Source: Octopus vulgaris
Lineage: Eukaryota
Direction: 5' to 3'
Length of the DNA: 64,000 nucleotides
Assembly (NCBI GenBank): GCA_951406725.2
Contig: OX597828.1
Location: forward strand, 55,118,001 to 55,182,000
Both the position numbers and the translations under genes were made by a program. The notes beneath the pieces are model-generated. The model was not told the origin of the DNA and made no database searches. It saw only the letters and a list, made by a program, of their open reading frames with translations. Shown piece by piece: positions 18,238 through 27,630 of this stretch (the stretch's first letter is position 1; each line of letters opens with the position of its first letter).

Positions 18238-18525
18238 TTACGCACCAAACATCAAATTAGGGTTTCTAGTTACAAGGTCATCGAATTTAGATGATTTCGG
18301 AACACATTGTTGTTTGTTTGACACTCCGTAACGCTGGATTTTTAGTTCCCCGTCGTTGAGCCTTTCCATACGAATCGCGTTTCTGGACCCTACGGAGGGA
18401 TCTTCATTGAAATAATTGAACGGTAGCAGAAAGAAGCTGTGATGTCCTCCGACTGTCGGTATCACCGGTAAATCCTCCATGTGTGGAATTCGGTAAGATC
18501 CAAGGGTAACCCAAACTACCAAATC
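18238..18525 (-). CDS. Copper amine oxidase-like protein, terminal coding exon (95 aa + stop)
   Basis: Acceptor ttttgtag|GAT. DLVVWVTLGSYRIPHMEDLPVIPTVGGHHSFFLLPFNYFNEDPS aligns to the AOC C-terminus DLVAWVTxGFLHIPHxEDIP...FFLRPYNFFDEDPS and joins in frame with exon 25567-27630. Confidence 0.92.
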   Translation of the reverse strand, partial: DLVVWVTLGSYRIPHMEDLPVIPTVGGHHSFFLLPFNYFNEDPSVGSRNAIRMERLNDGELKIQRYGVSNKQQCVPKSSKFDDLVTRNPNLMFGA

Positions 18526-18826
18526 CTACAAAAGATTTTAAAAACAAGAGATATAGACATAAATGAATCTGCTAAAAGACCGAATGTAGAATGAAGGAAA
18601 CGGGTTATATAATGTATGCAAGAAACTAACGATCGGTATACATATATACACACATATATATATGGATATGTATAACCTATATCGTAGATACGTAAAAAGG
18701 ACTCATTTACCTATTTTTCAGTAGAGTATATAAAAAAAACAAAAACAAAGAACATTGGGGACATTTTCTGTTTGGCTGTAACTGTGGAAATTTTAAAGTT
18801 TAGTGAAAAGTTTAAAATTTGATATA

Positions 18827-19520
18827 CCGTAAATCCTCGAGTATAGTCTGCCCTTGAGTATAATACGCAGGGGATTTTTAGGGGGCTGTACCTCTGGAAA
18901 AACCTAAACCTTGTGTATAATACGCACCCTTTCTCTAGCTTGAGTCAAAGAGGTCTATATAACGTCCTTGGTTTGTAAAAATAGACTTGTCACACGCGAC
19001 GGGTTTTGTACGATATAACCGCACAAGGTAGCAACAGCCGGACACTGAACAAATGCGTTCAGGACGGTTTCGTCGCTCAGTACGTACCTCGAACAAGTCC
19101 GTATAACAGAATATCCGTATCTATAGAGTTTATTTCGAAACGGTAGCACCTCCTGTAGCATGCCAGGCCAAGGACATTATTATTATTATTGTATATATAA
19201 CATAATGCAAACGTGTAGCTTTTTTTGTGCATTTTGTTTGCAGAAAATAAAGAAATAACAGTAATAACGTTTAATAAATGTTGCTTACTGCAAGTTATGG
19301 ATGATTCTTTTATGACTTCATTGCTTTCAGGCTTAGCTTAAGGTATTTTTGCGCCCGACATCACAAAATGCATCTGAATAAACATTGCCGGACACCAAAT
19401 AGCGACTCAGAGATTGCTTAGAAAATATTTTTCATTTTTAACCTTGTATATAGTACGCACTAGGGATTTTGACCCTTAAATTTTGGGGAAAAAATGTGGA
19501 TTATACTCAAGGATTTACGG
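18827..19520. mobile_element. Non-autonomous pogo/Tigger-like DNA transposon (MITE) in the amine oxidase intron
   Basis: TIRs ccgtaaatcctcgagtatagtc and ggattatactcaaggatttacgg; TA on both flanks. Confidence 0.85.
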
Positions 19521-20367
19521 TATTTATGTAATTTTCCACGCGGAATCTCAGGAGATAATTTACTTTTTCCAGAACAATTCTTTAAAAGTTACAGGATTTT
19601 AAAGTTTGATGATTTGGAAGATGTCATTTTGTGCGTGAGAGCGTGTTATCAGCTGCAACCAAATGAAATATTGACGAAATTCTGCTTTACGCATGCCATA
19701 TAACATCGCATAAGTTTTTTTTTCTTTTGAAATTTTCAGAAAATTTTTGCGAATTTGTATTATATACACGGAAATTTATACGATTAAGTAAAAACGAAAC
19801 AACAAAATTTTTCGAGCAGGAATTAAGGCCTCCTTGACTCTGTCGTTGCTCACACGTGACTAGCGGCTATCTTTCTTATACATACATACATACATACATA
19901 CATATATATATATATATATATATATATATATATATATATATATATATATATATATATATATATATATATATATATATATATATATATATATATATATATA
20001 TATATATATATATATATACATATATATATATATATATATATATATATATATATATATATATATATATATATATATATGTACACATATATATATATCAGTG
20101 CGAATGATTTTGTTAAGCGGTGTCGAGTTTTACAATTCTGTAAATAATAATAATCGTATTTTGTTTATACGCTTAAAGCTTATAGCGATTACCGTGCAAA
20201 TGGCTAAGGAAAATAGTCTAATGATGCAGCACATAAGCCCTCCACAGAAGAAATAGACTTTCTCGTACGCGTGGGGGAAAGCCTACTTTTTACTGTCGAG
20301 GGATTAAATGCCGCATTATTAGACTATTTTCCTTAGTCATTTGCACGGTGATATATATATATATATC

Positions 20368-25189: not shown

Positions 25190-25426
25190 TACCTATTTCT
25201 TTACTACCCACAAGGGGCTAAAGACAAAGAGGACAAACAAGGACAGACAAACGGATTAAGTCGATTACATCGACCCCAGTGCGTATCTGGTACTTATTTA
25301 ATCGACCCCGAAGGGATGAAAGACAAAGTCGACCTCGGCGGAATTTGAACTCAGAACGTAGTGGCAGACGAAACACTGCTGAGCATTTCACCCGGTGTGC
25401 TAACGTTTCTGCCAGCTCGCCGCCTT
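25190..25426 (-). mobile_element. SINE family A
   Basis: Family A head plus first unit. Confidence 0.88.
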
Positions 25427-25566
25427 GAAATTCTAATTAATCAAAATTTATTTAATAAAGAATGCTATATGTAATCAGTAAAACAGCAACAAATGTGGAT
25501 ATATTTGGGTCTGATTAGACCTCGGCTTATCTTGTAATTTACCTACAATCGAAAGAAGATGCTTAC

Positions 25567-27630
25567 CTGATCAACTATGCTCTCGTCATCATCAATATAT
25601 TTTTGAAAGTCAACCAGTGGTTTCAGGCCATCGTACGTTACATATTCAGAACTGCTACGAGTCTCATTGTCTTTATGGACAGTTACTGCTAATTGGTATC
25701 GACTCCAGGATCGACTTCGTTCCGTGCCGCGATCAAGGGGTAATAATTCTTTGCTCATTGAATTAATTTGGATTCTATATGATCTAGGAATACCTTGTTC
25801 GGTTCTAAATTTGTCGTTGCTAAAGACTAAATATTTCGGTCTAGAAAAGTCAAATTTGTACGCAGCTTCCTTTTCTGTAGAAACAAGTTTTCTCCTAAAT
25901 TTATTTTGATAATAATATTTTTCACCTCCCCATTTTCGGTTGTCAGTTTTATCACCTTCAATATTTAACATTTCAAATCGATTTTTGATCCCTTTGATGT
26001 CTATATCAATTCGGTAATTGAATAAATACTGGTGAATATTTCCGTGTAAGTGTTTATGGAGGTGATTACCGTAACGTTTTTCATCGCTTTTAGGGTAGGT
26101 TCCCATTATATAACCTGTGGGAATGCTACGAACTTCCACTGCCCCGTTCTGGTGGAAAACAAAGTCAAAAATATAATCGCGGTTGATCACAGTTGTGATT
26201 GTTCGAAAGACTAAAACATCATCCATCATTCCTGTATAGAATCTTCCAGATCGTTTTGTTGAAGAATGGTGCCGTCGCAGAGGAATCCCAGTGTTTTGTT
26301 CGAAAACACAGATTGAAAATGGGTTCTTTTCAACTATGTCTTTACTTCGTTCAGAAAAATAGTAAGTTGGGATCATCAAAGAATGTTCTGGACAATCGGC
26401 ACCTGGTATCAGACCGTTATTTGTTCTGCCGTACATAGCAAAGCTATCATAATAATTGGCAAGCATTGTTCCTGGATTTTGTCCTGAATAATGGACAGCT
26501 ACTTCTTGGAGACTAAGTTCATAGATAATTCGTTCTTCCTGATAGCGTATATTAAATAATTGAGGCCCGGTAACTGGGGATAGTCTATAGATAAATTTCC
26601 ATTTCATATATTCAATTTCTGACCCAACAACCCGGTACCTTTTACCGTCTGGCTCTGTTTGGTAAACACGGCGTTGACCTGTAGTTGGAAAGGTTTCGCC
26701 TCGTAAATTTGCTGTAGAAAATAAGTTTCCATTCTTAACAGGAAATTTCCTCCGCACTTTTTTAACAGATGGATCGTTTTGATAACGGTCAACAAATTCT
26801 GTGATAGTTTTGAACAGTTGCCCTTCGTACCAAATTGCCTTTATTGAGAAATCCGTCGGATTGTTCCCTGTTAAATCCAATAAAATATTCATGTCCAAAG
26901 GGTACAGTGAAGAATATTCCATCTGATAGGAAAGCATGATCCACTTCAGTCTTTCTTCGGTTCTGGTAATGGTAGAAGAAACAGGTGTTGCCAAATAGAA
27001 TGTCAGGCACCGGTCTCCACAGTTTAACAAAGAAGAACCGTAACTTTCTCTCATTATTCTACCCAAATCTCGTTCTAATATATAAATAAATCTGTCGTTT
27101 TCAACGAGCCACTCTGTCTCGCTAGCAGGTCTAAAAGAAAATGGGACTGTTGTTTGTAAGGTATGCTGTGTCGGCTCAGGTAGGGGACCAACATTATACT
27201 CTTCAACAACAGGTTTTCTTTTGTCTCCACGAAAGATAACAACTTTAGCGTTTCTTTGCGGCTGTCCAGCCCTACCTTCTAAATAAGCAACAACTTCAGA
27301 TTTCTTGGGTAACATTAATTCGATATTATTCACGTAACTAACATTAATACTGTTGACTTTTTCTGGATGCACGATATTTAAATCGGACTGGTTTTTAACG
27401 TAATCGAATACTGAACGTATTTCTTTGGGTGATAAATCCGCAAATATTACAGGTTTCTCTGGATTAGCGATTATATAACTGGCAAGACCTTCGTTACACA
27501 CTTCAGCACGTAATCGCTTTAACTCGATCACTGACAGAATTGAAAATGTCACAAAGCCTACAATTAGGCCAAGTGTGAAAACAAAGAACACAGAACCGCA
27601 TAGTTTCCAATTGCATTCTTTTTCCGTCAT
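25567..27630 (-). CDS. Copper amine oxidase-like protein (AOC1/AOC3 family), large first coding exon, 688 codons; predicted catalytically inactive
   Basis: ATG directly follows the acceptor tttttcag; phase-0 donor CAG|gtaagc at 25566. N-terminal hydrophobic anchor; family motifs IFADLSPKEI, GPLPEP, IYELSLQEV, GADCP, CVFEQNTGIPLRRHHS, DFVFHQNGAVEV, WSRYQLAVT. Confidence 0.93.

Follow-up and report, generated by a model that had tools for sequence, protein, structure and literature searches.

The minus strand of a 64,000-nucleotide stretch of the Octopus vulgaris genome (assembly GCA_951406725.2, contig OX597828.1, positions 55,118,001 to 55,182,000; hereafter the window) encodes a homolog of the copper amine oxidases that lacks the residues needed to make the cofactor, and which very probably is a selected pseudo-enzyme with their fold. 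The gene has two coding exons separated by a phase-0 GT-AG intron and encodes 783 amino acids before a single terminal stop; a preliminary description, made from the letters alone, had reported this frame as free of internal stops and with canonical splice sites, and the window sequence bears it out. The features expected of a pseudo-enzyme were found: the frame is intact, the gene is transcribed and spliced, and purifying selection has acted after the catalytic residues were lost.

In this family the cofactor topaquinone (TPQ) derives from the Tyr of the motif T-X-X-N-Y-D/E, and its formation requires copper bound by three strictly conserved His (PMC3382800; this and the other articles are cited for the accessible parts of their text). 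The mammalian AOC3 residues Y471, H520, H522, H684 and D386, whose roles are described in PMC7144023, align to positions 484, 533, 535, 700 and 395 of the octopus protein, as the preliminary description had proposed for the first four. The motif at the TPQ site reads TVINRD in Octopus and TVTNQD in Argonauta, and one of the three copper His is kept in each, the sites being H533/Y535/R700 in Octopus and Y533/H535/R700 in Argonauta. The residues, codons and coordinates given earlier for the five sites (Table 1) are all correct. Because the TPQ Tyr and two of the copper His that the cofactor needs are gone, there is a strong prediction that the protein makes no cofactor and hence is inactive as an amine oxidase. 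Judged by the defining residues, it is not a member of the copper amine oxidase enzyme family.

The rest of the active site looks different. The catalytic-base Asp395 and the TPQ-contacting Tyr381 are present in 5/5 octopod sequences, and the pocket residues D395, Y381, Y393, N483, D485 and Y486 are identical in all five. Other landmarks are GADCP at 410, CVFE at 441 and LRRHHS at 451; these, Asp395 and the C-terminal Cys had been listed as retained, and all are present in the sequence. His703 was considered as a substitute for the third ligand and rejected, since it corresponds to the non-ligand His in H-I-P-H, which is also found in canonical enzymes. A rescue by A-to-I RNA editing was likewise rejected, as an A-to-G change cannot restore Tyr484, His535 or His700. 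Both the His to Arg change at 18490-18492 and the Gln to Arg change at 26179-26181 are themselves A-to-G, the change that such editing mimics.

It was possible to follow the loss through other cephalopods. The Sepia pharaonis protein CAE1290654.1, named 'AOC1', and its relatives (56-64% identity; 58-59% for CAE1290654.1 and P0005/P0006) are orthologs with the same anchor and size as the octopus protein, but they retain every one of the five catalytic and metal residues. Trees were built under LG+G4, a quick one of 39 rows and a careful one of 23, and the octopod proteins are sister to this canonical Sepia clade with a support of 100/100 in the 23-row tree, with which the 39-row tree agrees. 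On this placement the octopod gene is shown to be orthologous to a copper amine oxidase whose catalytic residues are all present in cuttlefish. Chiton proteins are the next relatives in the quick tree (support 99), at a node that is unresolved in the careful one.

The Argonauta hians ortholog (79% identity) has Gln484, Tyr533, His535 and Arg700, and the octopod sequences P0127 and P0128 (91% identical) have Gln484, His533 and Tyr535 and are unread at the third ligand. The close orthologs are not canonical, as those of O. sinensis, O. bimaculoides and Argonauta are all dead. The loss had earlier been called concerted, but on the sequences compared it is stepwise, because position 484 is Gln in Argonauta and P0127/P0128, and because a different His of the HxH motif is replaced in Octopus and in Argonauta; Arg700 alone is common to the two. 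On the octopod stem, Gln would have replaced Tyr484 and Arg would have replaced His700; later, His535 would have become Tyr in the Octopus line, His533 Tyr in Argonauta, and Gln484 Arg in O. vulgaris, O. sinensis and O. bimaculoides. It had also been suggested that two Arg residues could substitute for the copper charge. For Arg484 this fails, given the Gln in Argonauta and P0127/P0128, and at most Arg700 fits.

Apart from this locus, genome searches found just two distant paralogs and no intact duplicate of the dead octopod lineage (these are minimum counts, and gaps in the assembly are possible), and the shorter octopod fragments searched, 8 proteins, were all at most 47% identical. The paralogs B and C, on contig C2 at 67.15-67.31 Mb, are canonical with the Tyr and three His each, and they are divergently arranged with the same split into a large and a small exon (L002/L006 and L003/L005). 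Paralog C carries S-Y-D-Y instead of N-Y-D-Y, sits on a very long branch, and has ~57 kb between its two exons. Their identity to the dead protein is ~39-46% in the catalytic domain, a split that predates the cephalopod radiation. Given that the sister clade is canonical and that the genome searches found no intact copy of the lineage, the events are most simply read as the loss of catalysis by a single-copy gene along the octopod stem, apparently without duplication. An older duplication with reciprocal loss may have taken place instead. Pseudo-enzymes more usually arise from a spare copy than by the conversion of a gene that has no evident duplicate.

The 783-residue protein is the same as Octopus vulgaris CAI9734012.1, which is annotated plainly as amine oxidase. 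The O. sinensis protein differs from it at 5 residues and that of O. bimaculoides at 29, and both share D/R/H/Y/R at the five sites. Contigs of 8 public sequencing runs were placed on exon 1, which five of them cover (X1, X5, X8, X15 and X16) and three do not (X21-X23). Codons 484, 533 and 535 show no alternative letter in the five covering runs, and no contig restores Tyr at 484 or His at 535; codon 700 was read in the window sequence and in the database proteins of 4 species. An assembly error was rejected, as the residues are identical across independent runs and Octopus species. In 3/3 presumed-RNA runs, from three studies, the contigs leave the genome at 25566 and continue in exon 2, their loose ends matching 18495-18524, the start of that exon. 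Going by this jump, the gene is transcribed and spliced as modelled. Run X16 instead reads on into the intron. The stretch is present in 20/24 listed runs, and 14 of these 20 are guessed to be RNA while none is recorded as such. An open frame of 783 residues is found in O. vulgaris, O. sinensis, O. bimaculoides and Argonauta.

Across the covering runs exon 1 has 20 coding variants, 17 synonymous and 3 non-synonymous, over 475.5 synonymous and 1588.5 non-synonymous sites and with two intronic variants excluded; the ratio of non-synonymous to synonymous variants per site (pN/pS) is ~0.05 (p 8e-9). Another comparison covered the 105 columns whose residue is shared by at least 90% of 38 canonical enzymes. 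The octopods were flagged in 11/105 of them; 4 flags stem only from an intron read-through tail in P0127 and were dropped, and the remaining 7 are at 484, 533, 535, 700, 322, 554 and, in Argonauta only, 140. Changed are thus 4/5 catalytic or metal sites as compared to 3/100 other conserved columns (Fisher p 3.6e-5), the octopods keeping 97/100 of the latter. Cys45, Cys413, Cys441 and Cys762 and the acidic residues D542/D544/E586/E683 are kept, and D689 is kept wherever exon 2 was read. From AOC3 we take the Cys to form disulfides, Cys45 and Cys762 between subunits, and the acidic residues to be calcium ligands. The intact pseudo-enzyme under selection that had been proposed therefore stands, being expressed, under purifying selection (17:3 variants) and open in four species. 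Spliced contigs together with a pN/pS of ~0.05 are not what a silent gene with a ratio near 1 would give, and a young pseudogene was rejected on the same grounds and on the open frame in four species.

Some points weigh against so simple a picture. The 20 variants mix polymorphism with differences between close species, and were counted without correction for transitions and transversions. The Octopus-Argonauta identity is 78.8% as compared to 93.0% for paralog B, the Octopus-Sepia identity 57.7% as compared to 76.9%, and the octopod stem is long, 0.41 against 0.13. Because the gene evolves faster than paralog B and has this long stem, constraint appears to be partly relaxed or the function shifted. 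Relative-rate counts of Octopus against Sepia with three outgroups (96:50, 91:56 and 92:45) give a significant excess on the octopod side. Between O. vulgaris and O. bimaculoides the identity is 96.3%, as compared to 94.1% for the canonical paralog C, so here the gene is no faster than C.

The protein matches the Pfam families PF01179 (4e-85) and PF02727 (2e-10). An AlphaFold model from a 64-sequence alignment has a predicted local distance difference test (pLDDT) score of 90.3 and a predicted template modelling (pTM) score of 0.89, and its best Foldseek match is human diamine oxidase (TM 0.84/0.92, root mean square deviation 2.6 A, 34% identity). The D2-D3-D4 fold is thus predicted to be intact. 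Human diamine oxidase, AOC1 (PDB 3HI7, 3MPH; E 1e-107), is the best match among solved structures and has the same D2-D3-D4 layout and the catalytic Asp, but it has the TPQ and three copper His, whereas the octopus protein lacks the Tyr and two His and has a predicted anchor. Human AOC1 is a secreted protein. Human VAP-1/AOC3 (PDB 1US1, 2C10) shares the fold (TM 0.80) and the type II topology predicted for the octopus protein. VAP-1 differs in being an active enzyme whose adhesion is largely activity-dependent, and its inactive forms are the engineered Y471F and a truncated splice variant, none of them a full-length conserved inactive gene; moreover, the octopus protein is not an AOC3 ortholog.

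The octopods are not alone in having lost the cofactor site. Among the 215 homologs listed, 10 lack the TPQ tyrosine, two of them octopod, and 1/215 is unread. In the best 150 representatives at 50% identity it is missing from 19, a few of which may be misaligned or decayed, while 4 more keep the Tyr but have changed a copper His and 8 are unread. Scallops and ark clams have a degenerate clade of full-length proteins (P0047, P0055, P0070, P0259, P0054, P0035 and P0050; support 100/100) with N-Q-D, Q-H-D or Q-Y-D at the TPQ site, the scallops converging on N-Q-D. These proteins, to which XP_069138607.1, XP_060064088.1, XP_021362741.1 and KAJ8304308.1 belong, are like the octopod ones in being full-length without the cofactor machinery, but they have lost the catalytic Asp and the first copper His and kept the third His, and their origin is independent: a common origin of the two dead clades was rejected (approximately unbiased test, p-AU 3e-89, under LG+G4 and with long branches present). 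No description of the degenerate scallop and ark clam proteins was found in the literature searched. Judged from these alignments, the octopus case is one clear instance of a recurrent pattern. That the site was lost several times independently suggests that the amine oxidase fold has a general role other than catalysis.

A further separate loss is that of Solemya velum P0180, in which the TPQ site reads N-F-D and two copper ligands are missing. The Porites coral proteins P0089, P0260 and P0261 and their relatives, a 295-member cluster, keep the TPQ Tyr and the HxH but have Gln or Glu at the third ligand and are apparently without the catalytic Asp, possibly an altered metal site. The Cao2 of fission yeast is reportedly inactive, a report that could not be confirmed. 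AtCuAO-epsilon1/epsilon2 of Arabidopsis and a plant clade are reported, in the accessible part of PMC12058724, to lack active-site residues or the T/S-X-X-N-Y-D motif. The epsilon genes are fragment copies, however, and the plant zeta clade is an active N-Y-E variant, so that neither is a full-length animal pseudo-enzyme.

As to function, the chances are about even that the octopod protein is a non-catalytic, type II membrane-anchored surface scaffold or binding protein with a putative partner. It would stay a disulfide-linked, calcium-stabilised homodimer in the membrane with Arg700 plugging the empty metal site, and selection would target the fold, the membrane anchor and the outer surface that binds a protein or matrix partner, not amine chemistry. 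Two comparisons of the Octopus-Argonauta pair with an equally diverged canonical pair, both post hoc and weak, lean towards a scaffold or binding protein over a sensor, a heterodimer regulator or new chemistry. The lining of the inner channel differs at 5/13 positions as compared to 0/13 (p 0.039), which argues against a conserved small-ligand pocket, and residues 1-56 are identical at 47/56 as compared to 37/55 positions (p 0.048), while the rest of the protein has 570/727 as compared to 594/726 (p 0.11). An RGD is present at 134, but it was rejected as a new adhesion motif since canonical orthologs have it too. The enzyme-independent binding mode of VAP-1 is a partial precedent (PMC6306676). 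Two observations speak against a scaffold: the Y471F form of VAP-1 supports significantly fewer leukocyte interactions (PMC6306676), and the six unchanged pocket residues in the five octopod sequences fit a retained pocket equally well.

Such a pocket could still bind a small amine or polyamine, or a partner's lysine side chain, within the former substrate channel and without turnover, as a sensor, buffer or tether with Asp395 pairing with the amine. Octopods make heavy use of biogenic amines, and the six residues, unchanged in 5/5 octopods, contrast with the dead bivalve clade where Y381 and D395 are lost in 5/5. We nevertheless find this unlikely, as the chance of six unchanged residues is 0.01-0.13 even at the average rate and buried residues evolve slower, the channel lining has diverged as described, and Arg or Gln484 and Arg700 bring a positive or neutral character next to Asp395. 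Regulation of an active paralog, B or C, through heterodimers that lower its activity or control its delivery to the surface is less likely still. The genome does hold two canonical paralogs, and a truncated splice form of VAP-1 has been proposed to form heterodimers with the full-length protein and to regulate it (PMC6306676), but B and C are distant paralogs that split off before the cephalopod radiation, and the genome searches did not find an active counterpart of the dead protein itself, which would be the natural partner. Equally improbable is a new chemistry or metal use, for instance a one-His/Tyr metal site or the use of Asp395 as in a hydrolase; the long stem and the relative-rate excess would agree with it, as would the one His kept and one Tyr gained in the HxH of each octopod line, but the swapped His and Tyr positions in Octopus and Argonauta look like relaxed C-to-T changes, unlike a conserved new site, and no new invariant catalytic set was seen. 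A slowly decaying or near-neutral gene, or residues that are assembly artefacts, can be set aside as very improbable, for although the gene evolves faster than paralog B, the same residues recur in independent runs and species, the frame is open in four species, pN/pS is ~0.05, splicing is correct, and O. vulgaris and O. bimaculoides are closer in this gene than in paralog C.

Table 1. Features of the amine oxidase homolog. Positions refer to the window, except for the candidate 5' exon beyond it.
Feature	Position	Strand	Remarks
Coding exon 1	27630-25567, 2064 nt	-	aa 1-688: tail, transmembrane helix, D2, D3, most of D4; covered by spliced contigs
Predicted type II transmembrane segment, ~aa 12-35	27526..27597	-	hydrophobic run; helix 8-40 in model; topology inferred
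Asp395 (GAT), catalytic-base position	26448-26446	-	kept in 5/5 octopod sequences compared
Arg484 (CGC), TPQ tyrosine position	26181-26179	-	Gln in Argonauta and P0127/P0128
His533 (CAC), sole copper ligand kept in Octopus	26034-26032	-	Tyr in Argonauta
Tyr535 (TAT), second copper ligand position	26028-26026	-	His in Argonauta
Intron	18526..25566, 7041 nt	-	GT-AG, phase 0, microsatellite- and repeat-rich
Coding exon 2	18525-18238, 288 nt	-	aa 689-783 + stop: third ligand position, C-terminal Cys762
Arg700 (CGA), third copper ligand position	18492-18490	-	common to three Octopus species + Argonauta
Candidate non-coding 5' exon	G000:C15:55223737-55223859	-	~78 kb upstream, beyond window; ends in GT donor

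An 11-residue tail with Cys6 and Cys11 precedes the predicted transmembrane segment, and the start ATG sits directly after an AG acceptor, which the preliminary description did not mention. The candidate 5' exon has upstream ATGs out of frame, and in the assembly analysed here an in-frame stop in it precedes the 45-residue extension annotated in CAI9734011.1. The 3' part of a follistatin gene lies at 1-6168 of the window on the plus strand, with an FST_N exon at 1-201 and Kazal-type exons near 1061-1309, 4472-4807 and 5803-6168. It converges tail to tail with the amine oxidase homolog and serves as a synteny marker. Broken remnants of mobile elements are a transposase fragment, presumably mariner-like, just upstream of exon 1 (28186-28750, minus strand) and a GIY-YIG fragment at 13867-14171 (plus strand). 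A piece similar to the transposase fragment was erroneously fused to an old gene model of O. bimaculoides.

The octopods have a reduced shell, and a link between this and the loss of catalysis is only a lead. A copper amine oxidase of Pinctada, of the same family as the octopus protein and compared here at family level, is a protein of the prismatic shell layer that is expressed at the mantle edge and whose role is only proposed (PMC4660305), and the family is among the shell-matrix orthogroups (PMC8059625). In the accessible part of the 2025 family survey (PMC12058724, Table S2) the only O. bimaculoides entries are the two paralogs B and C, under XP_052834321.1 and XP_014772217.1, the dead gene not being in those rows. 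The dead copy has apparently been overlooked, since the databases name it amine oxidase and the survey has only the canonical pair. No published account of the octopod protein or of animal amine oxidases without the TPQ was found, accession queries included, in searches whose coverage left out most subscription papers and bioRxiv supplements, and neither proteomic nor biochemical data on the octopod protein were found in the literature searched.

Pseudo-enzymes are common, and the octopod function is one that we infer. The protein is, however, a natural, full-length and long-conserved equivalent of the engineered VAP-1 Y471F, and the intact cuttlefish ortholog is its matched control. With both the natural dead protein and this control in existence, the role of the amine oxidase fold apart from catalysis becomes directly testable. 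Tentatively, the repeated conversion to non-catalytic surface proteins across animals may represent an unrecognised class of pseudo-enzymes, and the octopod switch without duplication may be a lineage innovation, in which an ectoenzyme that crosslinks matrix or clears amines would have turned into a receptor-like binding protein, possibly together with the reduction of the shell.

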